From IMG/VR virus record IMGVR_UViG_3300037424_001778, positions 45,586-109,585 of that record: a DNA stretch of 64,000 nucleotides. One strand, written 5' to 3'. Below, one piece after another: positions 30,751 to 60,950 of this stretch. Each line of letters starts with the position of its first letter. The first letter of the stretch is position 1. The notes below the pieces were generated by a model. The model saw only the letters and a list, made by a program, of their open reading frames with translations, was not told the DNA's origin and made no database searches. Position numbers and translations under genes: made by a program. Origin of the DNA: a virus.

Positions 30751-31908
30751 CTAGTCCGTTGGTGGAGGAAGAGCAAGCCATTGAAATATCTTCAGTAGGG
30801 CGGCGGCGGGGTCAGCTTCGTATTCGGCCTCGAGGACTCTGAGTAGAGATATCCCAGCCTCTATGCACTGCTGGTTTTTGCGGACGTCGCGTTCCTGCCC
30901 TACTGGATGGTAATACGTCCCGTCATATTCTATCGCTTTGCGTAGCGAAGGCACAAAAACATCGAGTTCCAAGAGCTTTGACTTCAACTCCCCTCGCTTC
31001 CCGTTGAGGGCGTCTGGGCGTTTTTCTTTGACTGCCGCAAAGATAGCTAGTTCAGCTTTGGAGTGCTGAAAGGAGCAATGGGGACAGCCAGTCTTACTGT
31101 ACGTCCTAGAGTTTGGTGTAGCTACCCAAGTGTGATTGCTGTTCTTAGAACAGATCCACACGACGCCCTTTCTGGAGCCGAATGTCATCTCGGCGAAGGG
31201 AATTGGATTGTCTGGGTGGTACTCTTTGGCGAGCCACGGGGCCCTCACCTCTAATGAATTTTTATCTGTCAAGAAGTTCTGTGGGCAATGCGGACAGCCA
31301 CTTTCTGAGGAGGTTCTGGAATTCGGCAAAGCCGGCCAAGTATGCTGTGGATTTTTGAGGCATTGCCACAATACTGAAACTTTCGAGCCATACCCGACCT
31401 CTTCGAATGGCAATGGGTTGGACGGGTGGTATTCTACTTCCAGATGCGGAGCGCGGGTCTTTAACGAATTCGCCGAAGATACATGGGTCCCGCTACAATA
31501 CGGACACCCCTGCTCTTGGCTCGTTCTCGAATTTGGGGCCATTTCCCATACATGCTCTGAGCACTGCGAGCACCGCCACTTTACTTTCTTCGTTGAGCCA
31601 AACGACACATCTTCAAATGGAACAAGGTTATCTGGGTGATATTCTGACTCTAGGTGAGGGGCTTTTGTTCTCAACGAATTCACTTCAGAGATCCGCCGCC
31701 CCGAACAATAAGGGCAGCGGGACGGATACTTCGCCTTCCTGGTCCGTAGGGCGGGTGGCGTTTGCCACCTGTGCCCTACAGAACAAATCCACCAAACCGG
31801 CTTATTGGAGGAAAACGGAACGTTATCAAACGGGACCGTGTTGTCTAGGCAATACTCTCCCTCTAGGTGCGGGGAATGCATCTTGAGGGAGGTCTTGCCG
31901 CGTGACAT
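30751..31908 (-). CDS. Zn-ribbon-repeat protein with C-terminal Vsr/DUF559-like endonuclease (putative homing endonuclease)
   Basis: Four ~70-aa repeats (PHLExEYHPxN...VxWxC..H.W...RT...GCPxC) then 'ELDVFVPSLRKAIEYDGTYYH'. Confidence 0.75.
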   Translation of the reverse strand: MSRGKTSLKMHSPHLEGEYCLDNTVPFDNVPFSSNKPVWWICSVGHRWQTPPALRTRKAKYPSRCPYCSGRRISEVNSLRTKAPHLESEYHPDNLVPFEDVSFGSTKKVKWRCSQCSEHVWEMAPNSRTSQEQGCPYCSGTHVSSANSLKTRAPHLEVEYHPSNPLPFEEVGYGSKVSVLWQCLKNPQHTWPALPNSRTSSESGCPHCPQNFLTDKNSLEVRAPWLAKEYHPDNPIPFAEMTFGSRKGVVWICSKNSNHTWVATPNSRTYSKTGCPHCSFQHSKAELAIFAAVKEKRPDALNGKRGELKSKLLELDVFVPSLRKAIEYDGTYYHPVGQERDVRKNQQCIEAGISLLRVLEAEYEADPAAALLKIFQWLALPPPTD

Positions 31909-33074: not shown

Positions 33075-33722
33075 TTAATATCGAGCCTTCCCTATCTTGA
33101 ATCCAGACTGCGTGGTCGTAACTGCTGAGGTTGGTTGTGTTGGTTGTGAATTCGGAACAGCTACAGTATCGCAGCCATACATGTCCCATTCGTCCTCGGG
33201 CCACGGCTTGGCTTTTGACGGCATGGGCTCTGGGGCCGAATCCATATTGGTGTTCTGCGAGTTGTAGTTTGGTCGGTTGTAGATTTGGTCTGTGTCGGAT
33301 ACGGCCTTCTTGACTGCGTTCAGGGCTGAATCCATATCCTTTATTTTGAGCTTGAAGTACATCAACGCTGCTTCGAACCTGTATTCAGTTTCAACCGCCG
33401 CGTTGTACTCTGGGTCGATATCCAAGAGGGCCTGGCGGGTCTCTGCGTTGGAAGCCAACTTCTTTTCGGCTATCTTACCTGGAACGACATCGATGGTCAA
33501 AATAGCCTTGCGTCGAGCTACCGCTTGGCCAGCCAAGAGATGTCCAAGTAGTACGTCAGGTAGATGCCGCCCCAAGACAAAGCAAGCCTTAGAGAAGCAA
33601 GCCATCAGCTCTGGGGCCTTGGGGCGCGACACGAAGGCTATTTCGTGAACGCGCTGCTCTGCCTCGTTTGGAACGGACATGTCGTACGACTTGCCGTCCG
33701 GCGTCTGGAAGAAATCGGTCAT
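33075..33722 (-). CDS. UvsY-like recombination mediator (tentative)
   Basis: Helical 'LLDIDPEYNAAVETEYRFEAALMYFKLKIKDM'; immediately upstream of the RecA-like gene. Confidence 0.4.
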   Translation of the reverse strand: MTDFFQTPDGKSYDMSVPNEAEQRVHEIAFVSRPKAPELMACFSKACFVLGRHLPDVLLGHLLAGQAVARRKAILTIDVVPGKIAEKKLASNAETRQALLDIDPEYNAAVETEYRFEAALMYFKLKIKDMDSALNAVKKAVSDTDQIYNRPNYNSQNTNMDSAPEPMPSKAKPWPEDEWDMYGCDTVAVPNSQPTQPTSAVTTTQSGFKIGKARY

Positions 33723-33725
33723 TGC

Positions 33726-33995
33726 TCAATCCATGAAGTAGACGGGCTGGGGCTCAGGGGAGACGTTTGTGGTCCATGGGCGCTTGGGGGAGTCGTCAAC
33801 CGCGAGCCCGCTAACGCTCAAGTCGAGGGAAACCTCTCCGGTCGACTCGACGTATCCCTCTCCGATGTCGCGGCAGCCGTACCGTGAGCTGAAGTTCAGG
33901 CCCTTGCTGTCTGGCTTGATTGCCAGAACCTGAATGGTACCGTCTTCCATCTCAAAACTCATAACGACCTTCTTCACGCCATGCTTGTAGTCCAT
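33726..33995 (-). CDS. Hypothetical protein (89 aa)
   Basis: ORF with AAGGA SD. Confidence 0.5.
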   Translation of the reverse strand: MDYKHGVKKVVMSFEMEDGTIQVLAIKPDSKGLNFSSRYGCRDIGEGYVESTGEVSLDLSVSGLAVDDSPKRPWTTNVSPEPQPVYFMD

Positions 33996-34064
33996 ATATT
34001 CCTTTGGGTCATCCTCAGCACGAGCCTTACTCGTGTACGGCCCGAACAGGCGCCGTTTCGACCT

Positions 34065-34163
34065 TTTTAGTTCTCCTTGCGGAGTGATGGCTAAATTCTT
34101 CTACTTCGCCATGAACGCATCCATGTCTTGACTAACCCCTTGCGGGGTGATGTAATTACTTAT
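34065..34163 (-). CRISPR. Delocalised mini-array: two diverged CRISPR repeats (34128-34163 and 34065-34100) with one ~27-nt spacer (34101-34127)
   Basis: Each copy is 23/36 identical to the main repeat by manual alignment; one has an unbroken 15/15 core (CTCCTTGCGGAGTGA), the other has compensatory stem changes (ACCCC-GCAA-GGGGT). Confidence 0.8.
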
Positions 34164-35331
34164 ACTTCGCCATAAAAGCATCCATATCGCCCTCCAGCTC
34201 GGCTAGCGCCTTTGAAGTGGGGGCCGGCTCGGGCTCCACCTTCGCCGGTTCAGCCTTCGGAGCTGACGCCTTAGCTGCCTTGCGTGCTGCTGCCGCTGCC
34301 ATGGCTGCCTGCAGGCGAGCCATCTCTGCCTCCTCCTCATCTACGACGGCCTCGACTGGAGCTGCAGCTACGGGGGCCGGTGCGGGCTTCGGGGCTGGGA
34401 GTGAGGCGACCTCTTCCTCGGGCTCCTCGTCGAGGATTTCGTCGACCTTGGCGGACGAAGCGGGGGTCTCTTGCTTGGCGACAATCTTGGGCATCTTGAA
34501 TACAGTGCGGACGACCTCTTCATCGCCGCCCGACTCAACCAACATCTTGATTTGGTCGAGCGTCAAGTCACGGCCAAGAGCGTCCAGAGAAGGTAGCTTC
34601 TCTAGTGCGTCTAGGTCAGATTGGGTCAGGCTGTCGTACTTGGTGCGCTGGACCGTCTCGCCGTCGAGGACTGCGTCTTCGGTATACACGGTGGGGATGT
34701 CTTTGATGTCGTTGAACGACTCGCCACTGCGCTCCCACTTAATCCAGACGCCCTTCTCTGGGCTCAGCGGGTCTACTCCCTTGCCGAGAAGCTTGTCGAT
34801 TAGCCCAGGCACGCGCTCGTTGCCCTTCAGAAGCTTGTAGGCTGCGTGTGAGCACTGGAAAAAGCCCCAAACCCCGTTGGTGTCCTTGGCTACGATGTGC
34901 CACTTGCGGTCGCAGTTGTGGTCGCGGGTCCATGAAGCGACGTACTGGGTTGCGGCTTGAACCTCTTCCTTGGACTTGCCTTCCTTCTCGAGGGACTCCT
35001 TCTTGGACTTGAGCTTGTCCTTCTGGACCTTAATCAAATCGCACTCGGGACAGTGCGTAGTGATTGTTCCGTCGCGGTCCGTCTTCTCGATGCACTTGAA
35101 GTTGAGCGGAATATTGCGCGACTTGCCGTCGTTCCCAACAAAGGGAACACTATATCCCCAGTGCTGCTTGAGATACAGAGCCCAAATTCCTCGGTCAGCG
35201 AGAGGTCCGATTGGGGGTGCCAGTCGCACTACCAGCGTGCGCTGCTTGGGCTCCTTGTGGCCCAACTTGTGGAAGGTGAGACGGGTTGATTCTTGAGACT
35301 TGTAATTTGCCTTGCCTACTTGGATTGCCAT
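34156..35331 (-). CDS. Single-stranded DNA-binding protein (gp32-like)
   Basis: 'VVRLAPP', 'KQHW', CxxC, Pro/Ala-rich linker and acidic/hydrophobic tail (DMDAFMAKYK), inside the replication cluster. Confidence 0.7.
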   Translation of the reverse strand: MAIQVGKANYKSQESTRLTFHKLGHKEPKQRTLVVRLAPPIGPLADRGIWALYLKQHWGYSVPFVGNDGKSRNIPLNFKCIEKTDRDGTITTHCPECDLIKVQKDKLKSKKESLEKEGKSKEEVQAATQYVASWTRDHNCDRKWHIVAKDTNGVWGFFQCSHAAYKLLKGNERVPGLIDKLLGKGVDPLSPEKGVWIKWERSGESFNDIKDIPTVYTEDAVLDGETVQRTKYDSLTQSDLDALEKLPSLDALGRDLTLDQIKMLVESGGDEEVVRTVFKMPKIVAKQETPASSAKVDEILDEEPEEEVASLPAPKPAPAPVAAAPVEAVVDEEEAEMARLQAAMAAAAARKAAKASAPKAEPAKVEPEPAPTSKALAELEGDMDAFMAKYK

Positions 35332-35355
35332 ATATAGTTGCCTTTCGAGTTACAG

Positions 35356-36066
35356 TTACGGTTGCTTCATCATCTTGCGGACTTGCTTGAATACGTCTGT
35401 TACGGTCTTTTCGTCTGCCGTTGCGTCTGCTGTTGCTGCCACAAACTTGCCCTGGAATAGCTTTGGGGCGATTTGGTCCTGTACTTCTTGTGTTAGCCCT
35501 GTAACGAGGACGGGAATGACCGGGGCCTCACACTCCATATCCTTGACCTGCTTCAGCGCTGCTAGTTCTACGACGCCTGCCAAAAACTCGGGCCCCAAGT
35601 AAGTTACCAAATACTTGTTGACTAGAGCAATGCAGGATGCCGAGTCTGGCAGGAACTGCGGGCCATCGTACTTGATGTCGGGGATGGAAGTCAACCCCAC
35701 GAGAGAGGCAATTGCTTTGACCTCACGAATCATGACAGCGAATACAGCCGGAGAAAAATCGCGGTGGTGGCCGATGGTTGAGATGACTGCGTTGTGGATT
35801 TCGCCCGTCGCCGCGCTAAGGTCGACAAATGCGACTTCAGCTAACTCTCGCGCTGCGTTGACGAACTCGGCAGTGCCAGGTCCGGTCACAAAAACTGGAA
35901 ACCCGGCCTTGCGAAACGCAACCATCAGCTCCTTCTCGATGGCGGGAAGCTCTGCCCTGGCCTGATTCCGCATCATTTCGCGGCCTGGGCGGGTTCGTGT
36001 GTCCCCAGCGACGGTCATTGTGGCTCGGGCGCTGATTTCTTCGTACTTCTGGACTAGTTTTTTCAT
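35356..36066 (-). CDS. Hypothetical protein (start MKKLVQKY)
   Basis: ATG at 36066 preceded by GAAGGGAA; the longer ORF start overlaps another gene. Confidence 0.55.
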   Translation of the reverse strand: MKKLVQKYEEISARATMTVAGDTRTRPGREMMRNQARAELPAIEKELMVAFRKAGFPVFVTGPGTAEFVNAARELAEVAFVDLSAATGEIHNAVISTIGHHRDFSPAVFAVMIREVKAIASLVGLTSIPDIKYDGPQFLPDSASCIALVNKYLVTYLGPEFLAGVVELAALKQVKDMECEAPVIPVLVTGLTQEVQDQIAPKLFQGKFVAATADATADEKTVTDVFKQVRKMMKQP

Positions 36067-36068
36067 TG

Positions 36069-36562
36069 TTATATTCCCTTCGGTTGAGTTGGAGCCTTGC
36101 GCTTGGGTGCGCCTAGTTGCTCCATGCATGCTACTCCAAGTGCAGTGACTTTGCGAACTTCTTCTAGGGCCTGAAGTTCGTTGGCGGACCTGCTGACGTG
36201 ATGTAGCCCCTCTTCGATGTAGTCGCGCATGTAAACCATCCACTCGGTGACGGTGTGCGTGTGTCCATCCCAACGGACTTCTTGGTAGTCTCGCTCTGTA
36301 TCGATTGCTTTATATACTTCTCGTCGTGATGTCATTATTTATTCTCCTGTGCGTTGCCCCTAGCAAGGGCCCGTCCAAATTGAGCCCAGAACTCCTGCTC
36401 TTCTTCGGAAGGCGCAAACCCTGAGCCGAATTCTACGGTGCCGTCTGGAAGAACCGCAACGGCCAGTGTGCCGACTGGGTCAACGGCCCGAAATAGCTGG
36501 CGACCTCCAGTTGTAAAGTGTCCAGTACCCACGCCAACCACTTCAATCTCATTGCTCTTCAT
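36069..36562 (-). CDS. Two small genes (36069-36335, possibly MazG/NTP-PPase-like; 36335-36562)
   Basis: 'IDTERDYQEVRW...EEVRKVTALGVACMEQ' resembles helical NTP-pyrophosphatase-like phage proteins. Confidence 0.4.
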
Positions 36563-39500
36563 GCGCTCTCCTCTTTGTCTGCCTTTGTATTTAGTGACTG
36601 CTGCAACATCATTACGTCACACAAAAAGAAATCCTTGCTGCCTCTACCTCGGTTGAATAGACACGCTACGATTGAGCCAGCCAAGGTCGAATCGAAGGCG
36701 GACGGTAGCCCCTCTTTAGAAGGCCACTTTACCACCGAGACGCGCCGTCCGTCAACGTCCAAAGTGAGTTCGCTTGCGGTCCTTGGCTCGCCCGTCGAGC
36801 GCTGTTTATAGTCGAATCGTCGGTCGGCAACTACATACGCAATCATCGCTATATCCAGCTCCCCTTCCATCGGGCCTAGGTCGCTCAGTCGCTCGAATTG
36901 TTGTTCTGTCACTATGCGCCACTCGTCACTGACATCGCCGACCCAGTGCTCTTTTGAGCCGTCTTCTAGGACTCGGTCGCCTTCCGAGACGAAGGTCAAC
37001 AGTTTGTTGCCGCTGATTCGGTAAGGAAGCGCCTTCTGGACTAGAGGTAAAAGCTTTGTGCTGTAGGCAGGTAGGACCTTCTTGCGGAGTTGGAGCCGGA
37101 TGAGAGGGGACTGCAAGTCGAACTTGGCCGCAAACGAATTGATTTTCTTCTTGCCGCCGCACACATCACGGGCTGTGAAGATGTATTGTACGAGCCGCTG
37201 CTGGACTGTCATCGGACAGCCGGATTCGTCTGTGGCTGGGAACAGACTGTCCATTGCCCCAGACACGATGAGGTTTTGGACGACGGTTGAGCTGATAGCC
37301 GACACACCCTTAGCCTGCACCGTTTTTGTCTCACGTGTCTTCTTGTCTTTTTTCTGGGTGGTGCGAGGATGGTCAACTTTCCACTGTTCGATTTTCTCTA
37401 GGAGGTCGCGCAAGGAAGAGTAGGGTGCGCCAGCCAAGAGCTGCTCGTGGGCCTTGTCGCCCAAACCATGCAGCAAACTCAGTGGGGCCCGAATGCGTTC
37501 GTTTTGGATATCGAAGCCTGCCTTGCTGAGTGAGACGTCTGGTAGGTCGATGAGGTGTCCGCAATATCGCCAGAACTTTTCGTCGATTTCGTTTCGTTTG
37601 GCATTCGACAGCACTGCCGTCCACCACTCGAGGGGGAAATTGTGTTTGAGCCAAGCGCAGGCGTAAGATATAGTCACGTACGCAACCGCATGCGACAGGT
37701 TGAAGGAGTACCCAGCAAAGGCATACAGCATGTCCCAAATCTTCCGGGCTGTATCGGGTCCTAGTTCTGGGGTGGCGCCCTCTAGGAAGATAGGTCGGTC
37801 TATTTTGTCTACATCGACCATCTTCTTCTTGCTGAATCGATAACGGAATTCGTTGGCCTGGATGGCTGTCGTGTGTCCTAGGTCCTGAAAGATGCGCTGA
37901 CATTGCTCCTGATATACGATTGTACCTTTCGTCTCCGGCAACATCTTGTCCAGGACAGGCACAGCCCCTACAGGCTTGAGGCCTTTAGAGCGCCGGGCGA
38001 ACTCGACTAGCATGTTGTGCGAGTTGCCGGATTCGTCCGTAACGGTAGCATCCAGAGGGCCTGGGCGGTCCAGGGCCGTGAAAGCTGCCAGGTCATTGAT
38101 GCTGCGTAGGGCCGGAGAGCCGTCCTCAGTCTCAAAGTGTCGTAGGCCTTGTCTAGCCGCTCCAGCGTCGAACTGAAATACCGTCTCAACGCGCCCTTGG
38201 CATATATCTTTGTAGACCTCGATGTCTTCTGGGAGGTCCCACACATCATACTGTCTCCCACCGTATGGGATGAGCCGGACGGCAGGGACCTTCTTCCCGT
38301 CTACCAGAGCGAGGGCGACTCCGTGTTCGTCGATTTGAAGCTGCCCCCCTGTACCGTGACGAGCTTGTATGTTTTTGATTGCTCCTTCGATGTCTCGCAG
38401 CGAATTGATGTTCAAAAAGTCAATCTTCAGGCCGCCCGATGCTTCGACCCCGGCTGAACCGAAACTTGTGACACGAACCTTGCCGACAGTCATCAACGGA
38501 ATAAAGTTCTGTATAGGTTCGTTCGCGATGAGGAATCCACACGGATGGCGGCTCGCGTTTTTGCCCAATCCTAGCAACAATTGCACAGCTCCCCACTCCT
38601 TGGGGTATTTGGAGATAAAGCGCTGTAGGACCTGATTCGTTTCTGTCAGCCCGGGAATCCACTCATCCGAGTTGTCTGTGTACCCAAAGACGAACTCTTT
38701 GTCGCTGACGCCTTGTGGCGAGTCTGGCAGGGCCTTGCATACGGCTTCAATTTCCTGAGGAACTCGTGGCTCTGGATTACCTGACTGTCTATCGAAGGCG
38801 CGGAATACGTCTTTGATAGAATTCTTGAGCTTGAAGGTAGTGATGACGGAGATTTGAGCAACGCAATCGCCAAACCTTTCCTTCAGCCAACCCCCTTGGT
38901 CCTCGGGACCAACCAGAATTTCCCGGCTGGCCAAGTCATTGTCAATGTCAGGAAATTTGCCAGTGGCGATACGGTCCAATGTCAAAAATCGGTCCAGAGA
39001 TAGATTGTATGGAAGGGGGTCGATGTGCGTGATGCCCAATAAATAAGCGAGACGGCACCCAGCGGCACTGCCACGTCCAGGCCCAGTTAATACACCCGCC
39101 TTGTGGTACTGAAACAGAGCCTCCTCGACTACCATGAAGTATGGCAGCAAGTCGATTGAGCCGTTTTTGTAGAGCAGCTTGATTTCTTCGTCGAGCCTTG
39201 CAACGGCTGCCTGGTTTCCCCAATCCATTCGACCGTGTTTCTTGATTAGACCCATTGTATAGCGCAGGGTGTCTTGTGGGTAGAAGGACACCGGAAGGGT
39301 CTGCCGGGGGCTGAACTTGAAATCCTTGAAGCGGTTGGCCCACTCGAGCCCGTTTTCAATCCAACCCTCGAATTGGGCCTGGGGGACGCCCATGTTGTCG
39401 CGGAAGTACTCGAAGGCTTCGTCGGATGAGCGTCGGTGGTAGCTGTTGGCCATTCGCCAGCTTCCCGACTGACCCAATCTGACGTCTTGGACTATCTTTT

Positions 39501-40894: not shown

Positions 40895-40969
40895 GAGGGA
40901 ACTCCAGAATGTTGTTTGGTGCAGCCACTTCGCAGTCTACCTCTGCCGTATATCAAGCAGCTTCTCATA

Positions 40970-44771: not shown

Positions 44772-46436
44772 TTAGGCTCCGCAAGTCCCACGGTTCGTCA
44801 AAGAGCAAACGTCAGCTTGTTCCTCAACGAAGACTTTTCCCGTCTTGGACATGGCGGTCTGGTAGTTCACCACATTCAATGGTTGGCCATCGCGAGCCCC
44901 GTCTGGATAGAAGGTCACTCCGCGCAGTTTTGGAAGGTATTTCATCAGCATGGTGCCGATGGAACGTACGGTCTCTTCGTTATTATTTTCAGTACCCCAA
45001 GGAGGAAGGTTGACGGTAGAGCTGATGGCATGGTCGACGTATTTTTGCATCCAGGCCTGGAAAGCGACGCGGCGCTCGATGTTCTCAGCCAGAGCGTATG
45101 CGTCTTCGATTGCTTCCGGCTTGATACCAGACTCAATCAGACGACGCGCTACCGGGTCAATCACATACTCGTAATGGACCACGGTCCCCTTGTAATAGCG
45201 ACGCTTGTAGGCAACGCAGAACAAGGGCTCGATACCACCGATGGTGCCGGAAACGATGCTGGTCGTGCCGTTAGGCGCGATGGCTCGTGTGCGCTTGGGC
45301 TTGGAGAGCCCCCACTGCTTGGCGAAGGGAGCTGCTGCCGTCCCGCTGGTGGCGTAGACCTCCATGAGCTTCTCGAGGTCGCTGTCGGGGCCGTACACCT
45401 TGCCGTGCGTCAGTAGCCATTCATGCACTCCCATCAAGCCTAAGCCGAGTAGGCGATTCTTGGTTCGCACTTTGTCTACATCTGGGTACGGCACATCAGA
45501 GTACACAGACCCAGCCAGCAAAAAGGCTGTGCCTAGCTCTACCAGCTCCTTCATGTGCTCGACGTCGCGTACTCGAGACAGGTTGATTGAACCTAGATTG
45601 CACACGTCGTCGCTGGTGTCAGAAGTGACCTCACAGCAGGCGTTTCGAAGGGAATTATTTGAGTTGACTCCAGTGTCGATGCTGAACCCCGGCTCGCCCT
45701 TCTTGAGGGCCTGACGCAGAACCTCCCAATAGATTGTGCTGGCGAGAGAGTTCTGTGGGTGCTTGGGGTCCTTGAACGCGTCGAAGAATTCGTCGTCTAG
45801 AATGACAGACACGTTGGTCATGTCTAGGGTGGCTGGGAAGTTGAAGTCCTTTGCCTTGAGGGCCCGGACCTCGGGCGACCAATCCTTGCCGTGGACGAAT
45901 TCCATAGCGTCTGGGTGCCACCAGTGGATGCCAGCAAAAATGGCCGACCTACGGCTTCCGCCCTGCATTACTTCGCGACCAACCTCGTTAATCATCTTGG
46001 CGAGAGGAAAGGGGCCCGAAGCGAGACCTCCCGTCTTGCGGATTGGAAGCCCCTTGGCTCTCACATCACTATAGACAATGCCGATGCCGGCTCCAGTCAT
46101 CAAAGCCATGGACGACTTCTGGAGAAGTTCTGCCCATCCCTCACGAGAATCGGTCGCACGCAGCAAAAGGCAATTGCAGGTTTGGTGGAATGGCCTCCCG
46201 GCAGCATACAAATATCGCCCTCCTGGGACGAATTCGCGATTGAGAATCGCCTTCTCTATGCGCTGGACCAGCTCCTTTGGCGCGTCTACGGCTCCCATTA
46301 CGTGCTTGGCTACGCGATGTGAAAGCTGGGCCCAGGTCTCCTTCGTGCCGTCCTTCAGGTCCCACAGGTAACGCAACTTGGCGATGTTATGTGCAAAGCT
46401 GCTATTGAACCCGTCATTCGGCTGAGTGTCTGGCAT
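44772..46436 (-). CDS. nrdJ: Class II (adenosylcobalamin-dependent) ribonucleotide reductase
   Basis: PGGR, GGSRRSA, NACCE, CNLGS, AIAPNGT, C-terminal Cys pair; no beta subunit in window. Confidence 0.8.
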   Translation of the reverse strand: MPDTQPNDGFNSSFAHNIAKLRYLWDLKDGTKETWAQLSHRVAKHVMGAVDAPKELVQRIEKAILNREFVPGGRYLYAAGRPFHQTCNCLLLRATDSREGWAELLQKSSMALMTGAGIGIVYSDVRAKGLPIRKTGGLASGPFPLAKMINEVGREVMQGGSRRSAIFAGIHWWHPDAMEFVHGKDWSPEVRALKAKDFNFPATLDMTNVSVILDDEFFDAFKDPKHPQNSLASTIYWEVLRQALKKGEPGFSIDTGVNSNNSLRNACCEVTSDTSDDVCNLGSINLSRVRDVEHMKELVELGTAFLLAGSVYSDVPYPDVDKVRTKNRLLGLGLMGVHEWLLTHGKVYGPDSDLEKLMEVYATSGTAAAPFAKQWGLSKPKRTRAIAPNGTTSIVSGTIGGIEPLFCVAYKRRYYKGTVVHYEYVIDPVARRLIESGIKPEAIEDAYALAENIERRVAFQAWMQKYVDHAISSTVNLPPWGTENNNEETVRSIGTMLMKYLPKLRGVTFYPDGARDGQPLNVVNYQTAMSKTGKVFVEEQADVCSLTNRGTCGA

Positions 46437-52356: not shown

Positions 52357-54153
52357 TTACGGCCTGAGGTCTGCTTCGTTGATTCCAGAGTGACGCAGGA
52401 ATTCGGCTGTGTCTTTTGCTTCGGACAACTCAAGCTCCCTATCACGAGGACAGACAACAGTACCACCAGCGGTGCCAAGAAGTCCAGCCACAGAAATGGA
52501 ATTTCGAAGTGCCTCCAGCACAGCCGGAAGACTGTCCAGCAATCCGCTTTCGATGGGGTCTACCCACTCTTCGGTCTATAGGTTGAACGTCTCGAGTTCG
52601 GAGAGACGTTGAACAAACGACTCCGCTTCTTGGGCTGTGTATCCAGCGTTACCGTAGAGCTTCCAAACTGGCTCCAGGAGAGCCTTGGCTGCTACCATTC
52701 GGGCGATGGCGGCCGTCCCCTCACTAGTGTTGGGGTAGTCTTCGGTCAGTCGAGCTAGGCCTGCCGAGAGCGTTGCCAGGACTACGCCTCCACCGGGTAG
52801 GGCACCGTGCTTGAGGGCTCCTCGGACTGCCATAATGGCATCTTCGGCTCGGTCTCTTCGCTCACGAATTTCAGCGTGACTCGACCCCTGAATAATCAGG
52901 CGGGCGATGCCACTGGTCATCTTAGCCAGACGCTCACGCAGCAAGGTCTTCTCTAGCTCGCTAGTGGCAATCTCGGAAAGCTGCTTTTGGATTTGGTCTA
53001 CGCGCGTCAGTGCCAGGTCGGGGTCGAGGTTTCCAATTATGTTGCTTCTGAATCGGGTAGCCTCGAATACGCGGGGGCCAACGCCGAGGTCGTCGAGCTG
53101 AAAATTCTGCAAAGGGCGCTCGAGGGGGTCGAAGACGGAAGCTCCTGTAAGAGCCGCTATGTCGAGCAGAAAGTCGTAGCTGCCGGTCTTGACTGGGAAC
53201 ATCGGAACTTTGAGTGGGTAGACATTCAAGGTGCCGTCTTGGACAAACCCAGCGGCTAGGTTAGCTAGGACGCCCTCACTGAACTCCGTCGCACAAACAA
53301 CCACATTATGTGTTAATTTGTGGCCCTTGACTTCTGAGTCTACGCTGTTGGCTATTTGGCCGAGGACGGGGAAGAGGGAATTGAAGTCTGTAATCCTACC
53401 GTAGTGCAGTACGAAGCTCGGGCGCTCCAAGAAACAGGTTTGGGTTCCAATATCGTTGATGAACTTATTGTGGGCGAACCCACAACTCTCCTCGTAACCT
53501 AGAGGGATGGGAAAGCCTTCGATTTTTTGTACGATATACTTCGAAGGTCCGTTGGCGTCCGAAAGGGTAATATTGCCTTCGTCGCCAATGATTTCGTAGC
53601 ACTGTAGGACAGCATTCGCTAGCTCTTCGTCCCCGTTAGCGCTCACCTTGGCCACTGCTCGAAGCGCGGCCTTACCTTCTGCGTCGGCCAAAGATGGATG
53701 AATTGCCATACTTTTGACCGTTGGCTCCATTACATCCTTGAAGAGAGACATAAGTGTGCGAACAACCCGTTGCGGGCTGACGTGCGGATTCTGCTTGCAG
53801 TACTCGATGGTGTGACGAACAAAACTCTCGACCAAAATAGTTGCGGTAGTCGTACCGTCGCCAGCTTCCGATGCTGTACGAACGCTAGCGTCGCGTGTGG
53901 TCATCATCAGCACATGCTTGGTCGCGTCTTGGAAGGCCAGGGAGCGGAAAACCGTCACTCCGTCTTTGGTGACCATCGGCGGCATGTTGATTTCGGAATG
54001 CTCAATAATCACACTGCGGCCACCTGGGCCCAAAGTGGCCCCGACAAGGTCGGCACAAGTCTTAAGTGTGTCTTGTATGATTTGCTGGAGCTTCTCGCTC
54101 CTCGGAATCATTATCTTCGCTGCGCTTTTGACTGTGGCTGATTGGATGGACAT
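52357..54153 (-). CDS. groEL: GroEL-like chaperonin, 598 codons, interrupted by one in-frame TAG at 52576-52578
   Basis: TLGPGG, TKDGVTV, GDGTTTA, GGG; the frame continues past the TAG as TEEWVDPIESGLLDSLPAVLEALRNSISVAGLL to TAA at 52357. Confidence 0.85.
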
Positions 54154-54179: not shown

Positions 54180-54816
54180 TAGCACAACTCCTTGCGGAGT
54201 GAAGGCTTATATTGCAGGGCGTGGCCGGCGGGGGCGAAGTATCGAATCCAGCGTGTCTAACTCCTTGCGGAGTGAAGGCTTATATTGCAGACACGGTCGT
54301 AATTGTCGCCGCCTCTACTAGGACAGTGTGTCTAACTCCTTGCGGAGTGAAGGCTTATATTGCACGGACTAGCCCGCCTGTCAGAGGGACTGGCGACTGT
54401 TGGGTGTCTAACTCCTTGCGGAGTGAAGGCTTATATTGCTCGGGCAGCTTCGTCGGCTGGCACGTCTGCTATTGTTCGGGCTAGTGTCTAACTCCTTGCG
54501 GAGTGAAGGCTTATATTGCTAGTGGCTTGGCTAGGTCTGCGTCGTCTGTGACTAAGTAGTGTCTAACTCCTTGCGGAGTGAAGGCTTATATTGCTGGCTT
54601 AGGAGGACGGTAGTGCCAGAACCAGGAAGAATGTGTCTAACTCCTTGCGGAGTGAAGGCTTATATTGCCAGCAAATACATATCACTAGCAAGAGCGTGAC
54701 CGGTAGTGTCTAACTCCTTGCGGAGTGAAGGCTTATATTGCAGTTGCAACTGTAACTAAATCTCAAACCCAAAGGAATAAGTGTCTAACTCCTTGCGGAG
54801 TGAAGGCTTATATTGC
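54180..54816 (-). CRISPR. CRISPR array: 9 repeats of 36 bp and 8 spacers of 37-44 nt
   Basis: Repeat (+) GTGTCTAACTCCTTGCGGAGTGAAGGCTTATATTGC at 54253, 54328, 54404, 54484, 54559, 54633, 54706, 54781; degenerate terminal copy at 54180. Minus-strand hairpin ACTCC-GCAA-GGAGT and 8-nt handle TTAGACAC. Confidence 0.98.
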
Positions 54817-54953: not shown

Positions 54954-55541
54954 TCACGCACCCCTAAGGGGGAAACCTGGCCTTTCTCCCTGGGAAAAGT
55001 ACCCTCCGCCCATATGTCGACGGCCCCCGACCCCACATGCTTGAATCGCCAAAGACTCTTCCGACGAAAGGCCCGACACCTCTACCGCCGAGCCCCAAAT
55101 ATGGTTACCTTTGACCAGAATGGAGTCTGTATGGCCAAATTTAACCAAGCACCTAGGCGCAAGCAAATAAATCTGGCGTGCGATTTCTTCTCGTTGCTGA
55201 GCTGGGGTCTCTGCATTGGTCGTAACGAATCTTGACATCAGCTTTGCATGTGGAACGAGGAGTCGCACGGACGGGTCGCTCAGGACTACAGTCGCATCCC
55301 CCACCTGAATTTCGCACCCGCTAAGGGCCAAGAATTTTGGAGAGAGGGGGCCTCTGATGGTCAAAGTTGTTCCCTCCCTCCGTGCTCCGGTGCGCTTGCC
55401 TGTTATGGGCCCGAGTATCCAATCCATATCGTCGTGAAGAGATGGAGCTACAACGGACAGACCGGCGAACCAGAGATAACCTGAGTCTGTTGCGACGGTT
55501 CCTTTGACTGGGAACACAAAATCAACTGGCTGGACGGTCAT
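54954..55541 (-). CDS. cas6: Cas6 (MYXAN/type I-B-like)
   Basis: 'VDFVFPVKG', Gly-rich loop 'GVGGRRHMGGGYF'. Confidence 0.85.
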   Translation of the reverse strand: MTVQPVDFVFPVKGTVATDSGYLWFAGLSVVAPSLHDDMDWILGPITGKRTGARREGTTLTIRGPLSPKFLALSGCEIQVGDATVVLSDPSVRLLVPHAKLMSRFVTTNAETPAQQREEIARQIYLLAPRCLVKFGHTDSILVKGNHIWGSAVEVSGLSSEESLAIQACGVGGRRHMGGGYFSQGERPGFPLRGA

Positions 55542-55553
55542 GGTGTTTTTGTA

Positions 55554-56180
55554 TCAGGTATCGTGGTGGAGGTCAACTACCGGAATCATATTGTCGTACT
55601 CGATGGAATCTGTTGAGATAGACTTTACAACAGCATAGGAACAAAGGTTCTGTTGCGTGTATTTCACGACAACCGGAGTGGAAATCTCACCTTTGGTGTC
55701 GACAGAGAGCATCTTAGCCCACATGGGGGACCGAACCTCTTTGCATTGACGAATGGCGAATTCGCTTTCTCCCAGACTCCATAGTCCGGTCCTCTTCACC
55801 GGCTCGCCCAGCAGCATCGCGCGCAACCTGTCCTCCAATGTGGGGGATGAAGTTTCTCCTCTCGAGTCTACAGCCACTATTACCACCCCTCCAGTCAAGA
55901 CTTCCTCCTTGGCTGGGGCCTTGTTTGGGCCCTCAGCGTAGGGGGATTGGGGCGTCTTGAATCTATTGATAGACCGCAACCTGAGGCTTGGGGTGGGAGT
56001 TACCAGGAATCCGGTGCTCATACGAACACCGTAATGCCGGGTGGTATCAAACTCACCTACAGCCGACAACATGCACCCATAGGCGGTGGACACCGGGACG
56101 AACTTCAGGGAAGCCCGGAACATGGTTTGTGTAGGGTCCGCGAATCTCATCAATGGGACATCGAGCTGTAGGTAGAGCAT
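55554..56180 (-). CDS. cas5: Cas5 (DevS-like)
   Basis: 'LYLQLDVP...F...VPVSTAYGCMLSAVG', 'LGESEF'. Confidence 0.85.
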   Translation of the reverse strand: MLYLQLDVPLMRFADPTQTMFRASLKFVPVSTAYGCMLSAVGEFDTTRHYGVRMSTGFLVTPTPSLRLRSINRFKTPQSPYAEGPNKAPAKEEVLTGGVVIVAVDSRGETSSPTLEDRLRAMLLGEPVKRTGLWSLGESEFAIRQCKEVRSPMWAKMLSVDTKGEISTPVVVKYTQQNLCSYAVVKSISTDSIEYDNMIPVVDLHHDT

Positions 56181-56181
56181 G

Positions 56182-57285
56182 TCAGTACGCCTTCTTGACG
56201 CGAGCACTCAACTCGGCGAGGGCATCTTTGCGAGAGGTAAAGAGAGCTACCCCGACCTTTTCCAGGAGAACTTTGTTGTCTGGACTTATTCCCTCTACGA
56301 CCCTGCCCCCAATGACAAGATTCTCGGGGTGGTCAAAATCACCTCGGGTAATCGCAGAAATCAGGTAGCTGATGTTGACGTTGTCTTCGCCACCGCACCC
56401 GAAAGCATCCTGAATCTGAGAACAGCCGCTGTCGGATACGTGGCCCACCACAGACTCGGGGGTCCAGTCTACCAGGTTCTGTGTATTCCCTCCACCTACC
56501 CTCTGTAGGTGAGAGGCTACATAAAGGACAACCTCTGCGTCGGATGCTGTGACCTCAGCAAGGTTGAGGCTGAGCAAGTATTGCATTGCTGTGTAGTGGT
56601 ACTCCCGGCTGTATGGTGTCGGATTATCAGAATTCTGGGCACCTGCAGCCGCAAAGTGGTGCTCCATTTCGCCGCCGAACTGGGTCAAGCTAATGGCGCG
56701 ATACAGACTCATCGCAGCGCGCTGGGATTCACACGTCCCCTTGTGTTTGACCAGCACCACCTTCTTTTTGTCTGCGTCAAATGCCTGAACTACCGCCTTG
56801 AAGTCTACACCCTCCTGGTGGTCAGCCCAAGTATACGTATGCCACCCAACAGTGAGGAAGTCTGGGTCGTCGAGGACCACCTTGAATCCTCCTTTCTTCT
56901 TCTTCTTCTCCTTAGGAGAGAAGGTGATTTCTACGGTGGCGGCCGGAGCAGCTAGCTCGAACGTCACTTCGCCGTCCTCCGAAACGTCCCCGTCCGAAGA
57001 CGCTTCTGGTACCATCTTTCCAAAGAGGGTGCGGTCCAGTGGGTTCTTGGCGTCACGCCATTCGTGCTTGCGAGAGGCCTGATTCCAAGTCCGCTCGACG
57101 CGGGCCGAGCCGACAACCGTCTCGAGGAGCTGGCGCGCGGCGAAACCGAGGCAAGGATGACTCGTTACCGTGTAGTCTCCATCCAGGTGTCGCTCCTTCT
57201 GCATAGAAACGAGATTTCCTTCGGTTCCTGCCATATTATTTGAGAACTTCTGAAACTTGGTCACACTTTCAAGGTACAGGTACAT
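56182..57285 (-). CDS. cas7: Cas7 (DevR-like)
   Basis: 'SNNMAGTEGNLVSMQK', 'DRTLFGKM', 'AISL', 'DWTPESVV'; lies between cas8 and cas5. Confidence 0.85.
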   Translation of the reverse strand: MYLYLESVTKFQKFSNNMAGTEGNLVSMQKERHLDGDYTVTSHPCLGFAARQLLETVVGSARVERTWNQASRKHEWRDAKNPLDRTLFGKMVPEASSDGDVSEDGEVTFELAAPAATVEITFSPKEKKKKKGGFKVVLDDPDFLTVGWHTYTWADHQEGVDFKAVVQAFDADKKKVVLVKHKGTCESQRAAMSLYRAISLTQFGGEMEHHFAAAGAQNSDNPTPYSREYHYTAMQYLLSLNLAEVTASDAEVVLYVASHLQRVGGGNTQNLVDWTPESVVGHVSDSGCSQIQDAFGCGGEDNVNISYLISAITRGDFDHPENLVIGGRVVEGISPDNKVLLEKVGVALFTSRKDALAELSARVKKAY

Positions 57286-57289
57286 AATA

Positions 57290-58747
57290 TTAAGCGTCCT
57301 TCTTGGGTGAACGAATGGTGAGTGCGAGGAAGAAACAGGTTTGCAGTGAGGAGAAAGTAAGTGAACTGATTGATTCCAACTCTTTGGGTGTGATGTATCC
57401 GCCGTAGCGGGCTACAAAATTGCCTGCGATGTAGCCAAGTAGAGCTGAGAAGTCGTGAGATTGACGAATTGCGCGGCCGATTTCAGCCCTTTTGTTGTCT
57501 ACCTTATTCCACCCCCCAGCTTCATTTAGTTGAGAGGTAGCAAAGCGCCAAGTCCTCTGGAGGGCGTCGATGGTTGTCTGTTGGTCTGGCGTCATAGTAC
57601 CTTTCAGGTAGAACAGCGTTGTGCTCATTTTGTATCCGAAATCGTCGCCCATGGCAATAGCATCGGCCAGAAAAACGGGGCCCTTTTTGGTCTCAAGACA
57701 AAAAGAGATGAGGGAATTCCACCACACCTTTCCTGACGCAACATTCCTGGACGCAAATTTGAATAGGTCTGTATCTCGAGGGAGAAGGTCGGCGACGTCG
57801 GCGAGTGCCACGAATTTGTCGTCCGAGACGATGGTTACTTCCGTGACCGCAATGGGCCAAGTTTGATGGGAATCCCAGGCCACTGGCCCGAACTCTACTA
57901 CCAGCGCGGGGCCGAAAGCCTCCCTCCAGTCGCTGGAGATCCGTAGGTGGGTTGCCAGCGCACACGAACCAAAACCTCCGTTGATGCAACCACGGTAGGT
58001 GTCGGGGGTCAATCGGTGGCGTCCACGGCCGAACTTGATGAGGTCGGTCGGGGCAGGCACAAGCATGGCACCTCCTTTGAAACTTTTTGTTCCAACCCCA
58101 TTGTACCAAACGGGGGTACCTACCATAACAAAAAAAGCGGCTAGCGCGTGTTCTGGGGTATAGCTCTGGTTTTTTTGCCTTTGGGCTATCCAGGGCCCGG
58201 CCGCTCCGGGCAGTACAATGCCGCTTAATTGGACGGAGCCCTTCTTGACGGCTGCCAATACGCCAGTCGCCAAGTCTTTCTGGTGCTTGTATCCCTTGAC
58301 ACCACGAAAGTCCTCAAAACAAACAGCCGTTTTGTCTTCGTCGTTTGGGTCCTTTATGACTCTCGTAGCTCCTGGCAGATACTTCTTGGCAAGTGGGTGT
58401 TGCAGGAAGGTGGCTGTGTATGCACGGTGAAGGCCGAGGCGCACCTCCTCAGGAGAACCCTTTGCTGCGCCAGGCAGATACACAAGGCCGTCTTTGATTT
58501 GAAAGCTGTATTCCGACAGGGCTGTAAGTGTAGCTTTGGTGTCTTCCCCAAAATCCAAGTCAATGTGGTCCTGGTGGACCGTGGCTGTACCTGGCCCTAG
58601 CGGGATAGTTACTCCGTCCTCCCAGTCCAGCTCGAGGTCGCAGGCTAAGGCGTACAACGATGCCGCCAAGCCCCCTACCCCGGCGCGATGGAAGACTGAC
58701 ATGCCTGGGGAGGAAAGGGAGACGGTGATATTTTTTGTCTTTGCCAT
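57290..58747 (-). CDS. cas8: Cas8 large subunit, Cmx8/Csx13 (MYXAN) type
   Basis: N-terminal 'LSSPGMSVFHRAGVGGLA' signature. Confidence 0.85.
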   Translation of the reverse strand: MAKTKNITVSLSSPGMSVFHRAGVGGLAASLYALACDLELDWEDGVTIPLGPGTATVHQDHIDLDFGEDTKATLTALSEYSFQIKDGLVYLPGAAKGSPEEVRLGLHRAYTATFLQHPLAKKYLPGATRVIKDPNDEDKTAVCFEDFRGVKGYKHQKDLATGVLAAVKKGSVQLSGIVLPGAAGPWIAQRQKNQSYTPEHALAAFFVMVGTPVWYNGVGTKSFKGGAMLVPAPTDLIKFGRGRHRLTPDTYRGCINGGFGSCALATHLRISSDWREAFGPALVVEFGPVAWDSHQTWPIAVTEVTIVSDDKFVALADVADLLPRDTDLFKFASRNVASGKVWWNSLISFCLETKKGPVFLADAIAMGDDFGYKMSTTLFYLKGTMTPDQQTTIDALQRTWRFATSQLNEAGGWNKVDNKRAEIGRAIRQSHDFSALLGYIAGNFVARYGGYITPKELESISSLTFSSLQTCFFLALTIRSPKKDA

Positions 58748-58778
58748 ACCTATTAATACTCCTGGGCACACCAAAATG

Positions 58779-60950
58779 TCAAGCCCACTCAGCGCCTATT
58801 TCCGTGGAGTACGAAAGCTCGGCTGGCGTTACTACAGGTAAGTACCCCTCCTTGGGTAGGAGTTCAATGAGAGGGGAAATGCGGTCGGTTCTGACCATGG
58901 GAATGGCCCCCTTGATTCGAGCGGCGGCTGCAAGACCCCACTCGTGCCTAGCTGTATGGGCCCGTACAACCGCCGCGTCCTTTTCGAGGAGAACGTTGAC
59001 ACTCGGAAGCTCTGTTTTTCTAAACGGCACGGGAATGGTACTCGAAGGGTGGGCATCTAGGAGGGGGCAACGGGCAAGCCAGAACTCTTGTTCCCCGTCA
59101 ATTACTGCCGATTGTAGGTCCACCTGCGAAATTGCTCCTTGGAGTCTCTTCAGCCAGGCCCAACCTTCCGCCAAGGAGGCGGTGGAATAGGGAAGCGGCT
59201 GTCCGGTCCCACAAACGACGAAAGGGCACGCTGGGGTAAAACCGAACCTATTGAGGCGACCAAGTCTCTGAATAAGGGATGAGACTGGGGCAATATCTGT
59301 CACGAGGAGGTCTGCCGAGATGTTAAGACTCATTTCGGCCACCTGTGTAGTGAAGACCACCACAGCTCCGGCCTCTTGCGCTCCCAATCCCGACACGACT
59401 TCCCTGTGATGCTTAAGTCGGTCCTCGTACCTGAACCTCGAATGATAAATCAGCTTTCGGCCTGGACCTTTGTAGGAGAGGTAGGCCTCAACGCATGCGC
59501 CCACCGTATTCTTGACGACCAACACCTTGCCGCCAGAGGTGACGGCCTTAAGGATGGCAACTTCTGGGGGGTCGAAAGACCGAAAGTAGCGCTTATGTTT
59601 TTCCAGAGCTGCATCCCCCCCGATTACCTCCATCTGGACCCCGTGGACGGAGAAAACTGCAGCCTGAAGAGCAGCCTCCCTAGAAGCGGGCAGAGAGGCT
59701 GTCATAAGAAGGAGTGGAATACCGGGGAAGTGTCGAATGAACCCAAGCAGGGCCCCGAACATATCTGAATCGTAGGCGTGGATTTCGTCAAAAACAATAC
59801 TCGACCTAGCTGTGAGGGGCCACAGCCATCTCCCCTTATTTAAGTTGCACGTCACACCCAAGAGGGTATCCACAGTGCAAACTACGGCCGACGCCGCGTA
59901 CATACTAATAGTACGAATTTGCTCGATTTCTTCTTCGTCTTGAATACCCTGGTGTAAGTCGAATTCGTTCTCGTCGGCGGTGACCCTGGAGTGTTCCAGA
60001 TAACTTGAAGTCCCGGTGCCGTTTATGTCGACCCGGTACCCCTCCGTTGCTGTGCCTGTTGTGGGGTAGCAAAAAATAACCGATTTACCTCGGCTATGGG
60101 CCCAAAGATAAGCGGCGCTAGTTTTACCGTTCCCAGTCCCGGCCTTGACTAAGGTCACCGGAGATACAGAATCCCGAACGGACAATTGAAAGGCTCGTGG
60201 GGGGTTTTGTAAGATGCGCCCCACAACACCGTCCAAGTCGCATGGGCGGGACAGAACTTTTTGGAGCCAGGCTTCGTCCTTACGTGCGCGAGGCAGTGCG
60301 GAGCCGCATACGTCAGAGACGGTAACTAGAAGTTTGACTGCCGCAACCAAAGCTTTGTCCTTGGCCTTAATCGTATCGTCTATCCACTCTCTGTCTTCTT
60401 TGATATCCCCTTCGAGACCTCCCCTAGTTTTCATATCTACAGAAACGTTACTCAAGGGTGGGGGTGGGGGTAAGCCAAGATAAGAAGCCCCGAAATAGAG
60501 GAGGGAGGCAAAGTCGGGGTGGCCAGAAAAAACCTGCAAAGGGAGGCCGTCGTTAGTCTGCGGCTTATTTGTTTTTGTATGGTGCCCCCCAGCAGCAGAC
60601 AGCGCTATCGCTAGGTCTACTTCGGACGAAACGGCCTCCAGAAGCCAGGCCCTGAGTGGAGGTAGGTGCAGGACCATCCATACGCTTAGGGCTTCGTGGC
60701 GAACTCGCTGGCGGACATGGTGTGCAAGCTCGGCCTGAAAGTCGCTGCCCGCTTTGCCGAAGTCATGAATAAAAAACGCGAGTTTAGAAATATTGGTCAA
60801 TCTCTGGAGAGATTCCGAAGGAAGTCCCATCGCCTGGAGGGAGCTGTGTGCGGTAGCCAGAATCTGGAGGCCGTGGAGGCACACAGCACGAGTGTGTCCT
60901 TCGAATGTACCGGCCGGTTGGTTGCCAGACTTAGCTAGGAGCTTCTCCAT
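58779..60950 (-). CDS. cas3: Cas3 HD nuclease-helicase (723 aa)
   Basis: HT, IHDFGK, RHE, GHH, SD in HD domain; GTGNGKT, DEIH, TAS, TQVAEMSLNI, QRLGRLNR. Confidence 0.95.
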   Translation of the reverse strand: MEKLLAKSGNQPAGTFEGHTRAVCLHGLQILATAHSSLQAMGLPSESLQRLTNISKLAFFIHDFGKAGSDFQAELAHHVRQRVRHEALSVWMVLHLPPLRAWLLEAVSSEVDLAIALSAAGGHHTKTNKPQTNDGLPLQVFSGHPDFASLLYFGASYLGLPPPPPLSNVSVDMKTRGGLEGDIKEDREWIDDTIKAKDKALVAAVKLLVTVSDVCGSALPRARKDEAWLQKVLSRPCDLDGVVGRILQNPPRAFQLSVRDSVSPVTLVKAGTGNGKTSAAYLWAHSRGKSVIFCYPTTGTATEGYRVDINGTGTSSYLEHSRVTADENEFDLHQGIQDEEEIEQIRTISMYAASAVVCTVDTLLGVTCNLNKGRWLWPLTARSSIVFDEIHAYDSDMFGALLGFIRHFPGIPLLLMTASLPASREAALQAAVFSVHGVQMEVIGGDAALEKHKRYFRSFDPPEVAILKAVTSGGKVLVVKNTVGACVEAYLSYKGPGRKLIYHSRFRYEDRLKHHREVVSGLGAQEAGAVVVFTTQVAEMSLNISADLLVTDIAPVSSLIQRLGRLNRFGFTPACPFVVCGTGQPLPYSTASLAEGWAWLKRLQGAISQVDLQSAVIDGEQEFWLARCPLLDAHPSSTIPVPFRKTELPSVNVLLEKDAAVVRAHTARHEWGLAAAARIKGAIPMVRTDRISPLIELLPKEGYLPVVTPAELSYSTEIGAEWA

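Follow-up and report, generated by a model that had tools for sequence, protein, structure and literature searches.

Why should a phage carry two hairpins of the CRISPR (short palindromic repeats, clustered and regularly interspaced) type, with one short spacer between them, directly behind its gene for a single-stranded DNA-binding protein (SSB) and about 20 kb from its CRISPR array? The locus lies in a stretch of 64,000 nt, referred to below as the window, which is part of a 164,882-bp phage genome rated complete (IMG/VR virus record IMGVR_UViG_3300037424_001778, positions 45,586 to 109,585). Compared with the empty site of a sister strain, the window has an 89-nt insert on the minus strand, behind the SSB stop codon (TAA, 34158-34156), composed of positions 9-36 of the 36-nt CRISPR repeat (repeat B), a 27-nt guide, and positions 1-28 of the repeat (repeat A). 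Judged from its sequence, the insert appears to be a degenerate, lineage-specific CRISPR unit that encodes a single guide. We propose tentatively, with a probability of roughly 0.45, that it is a working single-guide unit yielding an RNA like a CRISPR RNA (crRNA) and aimed at the SSB gene ends of related phages, and that the resident SSB allele has been immunised by recoding.

The first line of evidence is the likeness of A and B to the repeat of the phage's own array. When up to two mismatches are allowed, the 17-mer repeat core has 11 matches in the window against 0.07 expected, nine of them in the array and the other two in A and B. The exact sequence TCACYCCGCAAGGRG likewise has 11 copies in the whole genome, in the nine-repeat array and in A and B, and nowhere else. 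The unit therefore has two direct repeats drawn from the cognate CRISPR repeat, and both hairpins form in the minimum-energy fold. Rfam gave no match. An earlier note on this DNA had delimited B as 34163-34128 (overlapping the SSB stop), the guide as 34127-34101 and A as 34100-34065 on the minus strand, and all of its strings and coordinates are exact. We also confirm that B keeps most of its handle (TTAGTCAA, 6/8 identical to the canonical TTAGACAC), that A keeps a 15/15 core, and that each repeat retains the half needed for one crRNA, B supplying hairpin and handle and A the 5' repeat part and hairpin.

Two details of that description need to be changed. A was said to have lost its handle, but the AACTAAAA found in its place is homologous to the original stop-codon region, which reads AAGTAACA in the sister strain, and A therefore ends at the edge of the insert and has not decayed. 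The last repeat of the main array is also without an intact handle. The stem of B was said to be maintained by two compensatory changes, whereas the difference is a single base pair, T-A to C-G. Moreover, as TTACATCACCCCGCAAGGGG of B matches the common form of a widespread repeat family at 20/20, this C-G pair and the adjoining CATCAC flank are family states rather than private changes; a CCCC/GGGG stem with a CATCAC flank is the usual state across the family. The same hairpin core is found in true CRISPR arrays of cyanobacteria, Clostridia and other groups, and the core ...CATCACCCCGCAAGGGG... occurs with the handle ACGGAAAC or ATTGAAAC in bacterial contigs (L039-L062) from filamentous cyanobacteria, Christensenella and other Clostridia, and Syntrophothermus. 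By these comparisons the phage repeat is a divergent member of the family with a handle type (TTAG.CA.) that is private to the phage lineage, and the A and B hairpins are shown, at the level of their core, to belong to the repeat family of the phage's own array.

The second line of evidence is the origin of the guide. The SSB open reading frame (ORF) ends on the minus strand with GAT ATG GAT GCT TTT ATG GCG AAG TAT AAG TAA. The guide had been reported to match this resident gene end at 23/27 with wobble mismatches only, and recomputation gave exactly this result: the four mismatches, at positions 3, 12, 15 and 27, are all third codon positions (chance of 4/4, 0.007). At positions 3 and 15 the guide has C, as have all close relatives, and the resident has T; at position 12 the guide has G, in common with the sister strain and one further relative (L009), and the resident again has T. 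Position 27 is the reverse case, in which the guide is the odd one, having G (and hence TAG) against T in the resident and T or C in all relatives. At position 9 both guide and resident have T, and close relatives have C, A or G. Because this derived T9 is common to these two only, the guide stems from the gene end of the resident lineage itself and not from a foreign allele; the allele comparison shows it to be a copy of that gene end in which the ancestral C3, G12 and C15 have been kept.

The two copies have changed unequally since the copying, at three of about eight silent sites in the gene copy and at one of 27 sites in the guide (Fisher p = 0.03). The G+C content at third codon positions (GC3) of the SSB gene is 0.71, yet five of the seven degenerate codons among its last nine end in T. 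The unequal change and the T-ending codons fit selection that keeps the guide, selection on the gene for escape from it, or both, the numbers being small. The resident is the sole close allele with a mismatch in guide positions 1-8, and the guide matches the alleles of relatives at 25/27 (L009), 24/27 (sister strain) and 23/27 (L011). The earlier suggestion that the resident allele escapes by synonymous change is upheld in so far as three of the four differences, position 3 included, are derived in the resident, but it also called for relatives with a perfect target, and there are none among those examined.

The third line of evidence is that a cognate Cas6 and effector are encoded in the same genome as the unit. 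The cas3-cas8-cas7-cas5-cas6 module is best matched by type I-B 'Myxan' models and lies ~20 kb from the unit (Table 1); neither cas1, cas4 nor a reverse transcriptase gene was found in the phage genome. The sister strain, present in four independent assemblies (L030-L033), shares its cas operon and its repeat with the window. Its array consists of 14 repeats and 13 spacers, of which the two at the trailer end are common with the window and the eleven newer ones differ. As the strain arrays compared, at window 54180-54816, at L034:12470-13480 and in L016, differ yet share their trailer-end spacers, the array turns over and the system is in use, and in a phage without cas1 and cas4 the new spacers must be acquired in trans, presumably from a host adaptation module that accepts the phage repeat. 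No Cas7 relatives were found in IMG/VR and a word-based Cas6 search returned the query alone; a full HMMER search gave Cas6 relatives all at ≤41% identity, and the two such contigs examined had no array beside the gene.

Table 1. Features of the unit, of the CRISPR-Cas system and of the surrounding mosaic, in window coordinates
Feature	Position	Strand	Basis or remark
SSB gene, gp32-type, 391 aa, C-terminal tail DMDAFMAKYK	34156..35331	(-)	ORF list, distant PF08804 matches, AlphaFold2 (AF2) fold
Resident gene end (U1), target-like, 23/27 to guide, 5' flank GGC	34162..34188	(-)	GAT, GCT and TTT are derived codons by comparison with all close relatives
Insert of 89 nt, flanked by AAGTAA...AACTAA, where the sister strain has an empty site	34067..34155	(-)	pairwise alignment
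Repeat B, 5'-truncated (positions 9-36), stem ACCCC/GGGGT, loop GCAA, handle TTAGTCAA	34128..34155	(-)	string and fold
27-nt guide (spacer), copy of the lineage's own SSB gene end	34101..34127	(-)	allele comparison
Repeat A, 5' repeat part and hairpin, core 15/15 to canonical repeat, ends at predicted Cas6 cut	34073..34100	(-)	
AACTAAAA, remnant of original stop-codon region (sister strain, AAGTAACA)	34065..34072	(-)	alignment to sister strain
Main CRISPR array, nine 36-nt repeats and eight spacers (37-44 nt), terminal repeat handle-degenerate	54180..54816	(-)	
cas6 (Cmx6-like)	54954..55541	(-)	PF09559 E 2e-24; TIGR02807; nearest homologues ≤41% identical
cas5, type I-B Myxan-like Cascade	55554-56207	(-)	cas5-cas7-cas8 span matched by TIGR02586, TIGR02585, TIGR03485
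cas7, type I-B Myxan-like Cascade	56182-57285	(-)	
cas8, type I-B Myxan-like Cascade	57290-58774	(-)	
cas3, HD nuclease and helicase domains	58779..60950	(-)	PF18019, PF00270, PF22590; TIGR01587
Upstream flank into polymerase gene	42949-39120		mostly 87-100% identity to sister strain, 200-nt windows
Diverged block: polymerase 3' two-thirds, small ORFs, ORF305, SSB	34162..39119	(-)	54-84% nucleotide identity to sister strain, 200-nt windows; flanks 97-100%
Downstream flank	from 34161		97-100% identity to sister strain, 200-nt windows

In the mechanism that we propose, the unit would be transcribed as the tail of the SSB mRNA, in keeping with searches that found no terminator-like site between the SSB stop and the unit and no minus-strand promoter-like site within 33600-35600, and the phage Cas6 would cut 3' of each hairpin to give a crRNA of ~63 nt, made up of UUAGUCAA, the 27-nt guide and a 28-nt 3' part, which would be loaded into the phage's type I-B-like Cascade. 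The guide would have stayed ancestral and the resident gene would have changed three wobble bases, seed position 3 among them; because these bases changed in the gene and not in the guide, we propose that the complex spares the resident genome. With the SSB gene ends of related phages, the guide should still pair over positions 1-8 and over most of the rest. The most likely use of such a complex would be in competition with co-infecting relatives, either by Cas3 cutting or, the guide being short, by binding without cutting.

The locus in the relatives shows that the unit is optional. The sister SSB gene ends AAG TAT AAG TAA C AAGGTCGAAACGG, which is an empty site, and beyond the insert the two strains differ by 2 mismatches in the first 250 nt; the empty-site joint is also present in the soil runs X2 and X3. 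There is thus presence/absence polymorphism with a clean empty site among close relatives. Nine SSB relatives inspected at the site have neither a second gene-end copy nor a repeat-like hairpin: they carry other hairpins there or none, and never the A/B hairpin, and the SSB tail form DM[DE]xF[LM]xK[YF] is kept in 9/9. A comparison of the locus across relatives, as the earlier note had advised, thus identifies the unit as an insertion missing from the closest relatives. It also agrees with that note in that the unit is not a plain duplication of gene end plus terminator, as 0/9 relatives have a copy of the unit and the unit tails differ. An expected tie to the presence of cas genes was not seen, as the sister strain has the same cas operon, together with an array, and an empty site.

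Comparison with the sister strain also reveals that the unit lies exactly on the downstream edge of the most diverged block in the ~40 kb compared, where identity jumps from 78% to 97-100%, so that a diverged tract of ~5 kb ends at the unit. Protein identity to the sister strain is 88% for SSB, 71% for ORF305 and 90% for the polymerase, and 100% for both UvsX and DnaB. The coincidence of unit and boundary is suggestive but not decisive, as there are smaller patches elsewhere and phage junctions often fall at gene ends.

A narrower version of the competition model, which we consider doubtful, would make the unit a natural element for RNA-guided homing or for marker exclusion. In a mixed infection, the crRNA would send Cascade-Cas3 to the SSB gene end of unit-free relatives, Cas3 would resect towards the SSB and polymerase genes, and repair from the attacker genome would copy the immune SSB allele, the neighbouring block and the guide. 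Such an event would have left the ~5-kb polymerase-to-SSB block that ends at the unit as its footprint. In the type I systems that have been studied, Cas3 travels 3'-to-5' on the non-target strand, on the side of the protospacer-adjacent motif (PAM) and away from the protospacer. By analogy, the run of Cas3 here would be into the SSB and polymerase genes, on the same side as the diverged block, and the position of the unit on a recombination-block boundary is compatible with this hypothetical homing.

The logic of such an element would resemble that of the free-standing homing endonucleases of T4-like phages. The segG gene lies between T4 genes 32 and 59 and its endonuclease cuts gene 32 of relatives (PMC2988022), and nuclease genes are found at genetic-exchange boundaries (PMC10448857). 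In common with these, the unit is an optional element by the SSB gene for which the neighbouring conserved gene in relatives would be the target, the resident allele is altered at the recognition site, and there is presence/absence polymorphism and an exchange-boundary position. It differs in that recognition would be by an RNA guide with a nuclease encoded 20 kb off, and not by a protein from the insert itself. The parallel with segG is one of analogous logic, not of homology.

Other known systems resemble the unit in part. Mini-CRISPR arrays carried by viruses and directed against related viruses (review, PMC11656645; model, PMC7099407) similarly have one spacer between two cognate repeats in a virus, with a spacer related to a gene of relatives, and for them, as for the unit, the proposed role is in inter-virus competition. 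In contrast to these, the phage studied here has a complete effector module and a full array, with the unit 20 kb from that array, the repeats of the unit are degenerate or truncated, its guide is short and without a known perfect target, and the guide comes from the adjacent gene of the virus itself, a gene recoded since then. The guides of CRISPR-associated transposons (CASTs), which can be delocalised or atypical (PMC11656645), are also found outside an array, with atypical repeats, and are aimed at a conserved gene end beside their own site. Unlike a CAST, the phage has an intact Cas3 and no transposase among its annotated genes: none was named by PHROG for the nine proteins of the replication module around the unit. 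A TniQ search gave no match in the phage, but none in the control genomes either. With Cas3 intact, the expected outcome is cutting or binding and not transposition. RNA anti-CRISPRs, which are solitary repeat units (PMC10651486), are likewise repeat-like hairpins in a phage genome outside an array, whereas the unit has two hairpin copies with a guide between them and has kept a handle; a dominant-negative decoy, moreover, would harm the phage's own system, because its own array uses the same repeat type.

A further resemblance is to CreA, CreR and the viral Cracr, which are regulatory RNAs of the crRNA-like kind (10.1101/2023.03.03.530964; 10.1101/2024.10.29.618823). Where such systems have been characterised, a shortened guide together with degenerate repeats is the mark of a crRNA-like regulatory RNA that binds without cutting (10.1101/2024.10.29.618823; 10.1101/2023.03.03.530964), and the unit has both features, its guide being short and imperfectly complementary and its degenerate flanking repeats each keeping the needed half. 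The targets of CreA, CreR and Cracr, however, are cas or toxin promoters with a PAM-proximal match only, whereas the unit matches along its whole guide and its sole target is the 3' end of the SSB ORF; a seed-type match to the cas promoters was looked for and not found.

A number of observations weigh against a working unit. The 27-nt guide is at least 8 nt below the shortest array spacer, the 19 distinct spacers (8 in the window and 13 in the sister strain, 2 being common) measuring 35-44 nt, and is thus outside the usual length. A perfect protospacer for the guide was found neither in IMG/VR and JGI metagenomes nor in the relatives examined; exact matches in the SSB genes of relatives had been proposed as a check, and the best is the 25/27 of L009, with all close relatives mismatched at guide position 9. 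A degenerate scan for alleles coding for DM[DE]AFMAKY returned L009 alone in IMG/VR and none in JGI metagenomes. The consistent 5' PAM that had been anticipated is not seen either, the six flanks GGC (resident allele), ATG (sister strain), ATA, GAG (L009), GGG and ACT being without a common motif. Protospacers for the array spacers, sought in the phage's own genome, the loci of relatives, a phage database and one IMG/VR scan, gave chance-level matches of 12-17 nt only. Over the full 36 nt, A and B each have 23/36 ungapped identity to the canonical repeat, which alone is chance level; the CRISPR signal in their sequences resides in the core and the arrangement, not in full-length identity. The arguments from mutation polarity and from the Fisher test are based on very few sites. 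The unit is carried by a single genome, the sister strain, whose cas genes are the same, does without it at no visible cost, and no second mini-array of the same form was found in IMG/VR scans. None of the RNA runs searched for the unit sequence contains it. Finally, in the source-like run X1 the Logan contigs break off at 34129 and 34185; as the 55 nt from 34130 to 34184 are uncovered there, B is attested by the IMG/VR assembly only. This gap may reflect a branch in the assembly graph (microdiversity) or the dropping of short contigs.

The main rival is an inert relic, which we regard as possible but unlikely. An illegitimate or microhomology join (AAGTAA...AACTAA) during block exchange would have left behind a fragment of a CRISPR array or of a solitary repeat, together with a gene-end copy, and none of this would have a function. 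The placement of the unit exactly on the mosaic boundary, at the step from 78% to 97-100% identity, speaks for a relic, and so do the frequency of such patches in the clade and the 6-nt direct repeat that bounds the insert. The sister strain without unit or visible cost, a 27-nt guide that is off the array's spacer ruler and the mere 23/36 identity of A and B to the repeat all agree with it, and mismatches confined to wobble positions would be automatic if both copies were once coding gene ends. A scar, on the other hand, leaves unexplained two CRISPR-type hairpins in array orientation, each with exactly the half required for one crRNA, at a site where no relative has such a hairpin. Nor is the guide a displaced allele of the backbone, since it shares the derived T9 with the resident, and it is far less changed than the silent sites of the gene copy.

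As A and B are too different from each other and the sister flank is 99% identical, the unit did not arise in place after the two strains split. From the sequence comparisons, it most likely came in already formed, along with the diverged block, from another lineage; its first formation may possibly have been from a copied array piece, or from a solitary repeat that was then duplicated. The second unit's tail corresponds to the original stop region and not to that of the first unit, which excludes a clean tandem duplication. Also excluded is ectopic integration by Cas1-Cas2 into a pseudo-repeat at the site, the empty site having no such sequence and the phage neither cas1 nor cas4, and an origin through a reverse-transcribed crRNA is rejected for a genome without a reverse transcriptase. 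Reading TAG as tyrosine, which would make the second copy coding, is rejected as well: TAG ends 28/172 genes and there is no suppressor tRNA. The guide copy has the same frame as ORF89, the gene that follows (start 33995), and 33995-34127 on the minus strand is open except for the TAG at 34101-34103. Without the TAT-to-TAG change, ATG codons in the guide copy could start an N-terminally extended ORF89.

We consider it improbable that the unit is instead a self-directed regulator, whose short guide would let Cascade bind the resident SSB gene end without Cas3 and so act as a roadblock or as feedback on transcription into the unit and the downstream recombination genes. The appeal of this model is that known crRNA-like regulators with degenerate repeats and shortened guides do bind without cutting (10.1101/2024.10.29.618823; 10.1101/2023.03.03.530964) and that the sole good match of the guide in its own genome is the adjacent gene end, at 23/27; other seed-type targets were sought there and none was found, near the cas genes or elsewhere, so that an alternative target by seed match is rejected. 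Such a regulator would, however, be directed at the 3' end of an ORF and not at a promoter, the resident seed mismatch at position 3 should weaken its binding, and the unit is 20 kb from the cas genes. In addition, the guide is in the mRNA sense and would pair with the template strand. In type I-E repression, template-strand pairing is the weaker orientation for blocking elongation, which counts against the regulator.

Very improbable, in our estimation, is Cas6-dependent mRNA processing, in which the hairpins would serve Cas6 for cutting or binding, so that the SSB mRNA has its 3' end fixed, stabilised and set apart from the downstream genes, the guide being a by-product. In favour of this, the unit follows directly as the 3' tail of an mRNA that is probably abundant, with no terminator between, and the Cas6-type family core is kept in both hairpins. 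There is also a precedent for RNA processing at this locus in other phages, in that RNase E processing of the T4 segG-gene 32 transcript stabilises gene 32 mRNA (PMC2988022). A single hairpin would suffice for this purpose, however, the well-kept gene-end copy between the hairpins and the handle of B are left unexplained, and the sister strain manages without the unit. An assembly artefact, in which a metagenome assembler joined two strain variants of the locus in tandem, is highly implausible even though the X1 contigs leave 55 nt including B without independent support, since the two units have no shared flanks (and hence are no linearised bubble), the contig ending at 34129 shows AA before the guide instead of the upstream codons of the gene and then continues through A and its flank, and the second copy has a stop codon and so is not an alternative gene allele.

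The identification of the gene as SSB was part of the earlier note and holds by fold and by distant Pfam matches, though not by any direct match of the gene's own. The protein itself has no direct Pfam or PHROG match; PF08804 (gp32) matches 3/20 of its homologues, distant ones, and an AF2 model with a pLDDT of 80 matches the gp32 cores of RB69 and T4 with probability 1.0 (Foldseek: 2a1k, 1gpc, 8gme). By PHROG annotation, the gene is flanked by a PolIII-alpha-type polymerase on one side and by a UvsX-like recombinase, an HNH endonuclease, a primase and DnaB on the other. The label is justified by the PF08804 matches among homologues, the gp32-core fold and this replication-gene neighbourhood taken together. 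A BLAST search of GenBank phages with the locus and the array gave no match.

Some further observations concern the neighbourhood. An HNH or homing-type endonuclease gene (30751-31908, minus strand) lies between the UvsX-like recombinase and primase genes in both the window and the sister strain, and beyond its TAG stop the frame stays open for 341 codons. The sister strain also has an insert of ~960 nt near window position 40950 that is absent from the window and contains a homing endonuclease gene (L030:1979-2680, phrog_314, E 1e-19), ~1.8 kb before the diverged block. This sister-only gene was considered as the left boundary of the block and rejected, as the drop in identity begins ~1.8 kb further, inside the polymerase gene. 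The chaperonin ORF (52576-54153, minus strand) ends at a TAG (52576-52578); the sister strain reads TAT (Tyr) at this codon and its gene, of 598 aa, is intact. The TAG has the appearance of a nonsense mutation or of an error in sequencing, and the same TAT-to-TAG change is found in the guide copy. Bases 2-14 of the newest array spacer match 33997-34009 on the plus strand, in the ribosome-binding region of ORF89 and 56 nt from the unit, at chance level (E 0.14). Three genome sites (C1:76546, which is window ~30961 on the minus strand; C1:140043, plus strand; C1:26280, minus strand) have in common a short GC hairpin, with a loop of the ACGCAA type and with ATAGAATA after it. This may be a promoter or a regulatory motif of the phage that has no relation to the CRISPR repeat.

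Should the unit prove inert, it would still show that a fragment of a CRISPR array has moved to a distant site, which is one possible first step towards delocalised guides. If it is instead a working unit, a phage would be using its own CRISPR effector with a self-derived guide placed beside its target, the resident gene being recoded for immunity, which is the logic of a homing endonuclease or of a toxin-antidote drive executed by RNA. It would then join viral mini-arrays, atypical homing guides and the nuclease-driven mosaicism of phage replication modules, and would offer a concrete route by which to ask whether CRISPR targeting between phages shapes their recombination boundaries.

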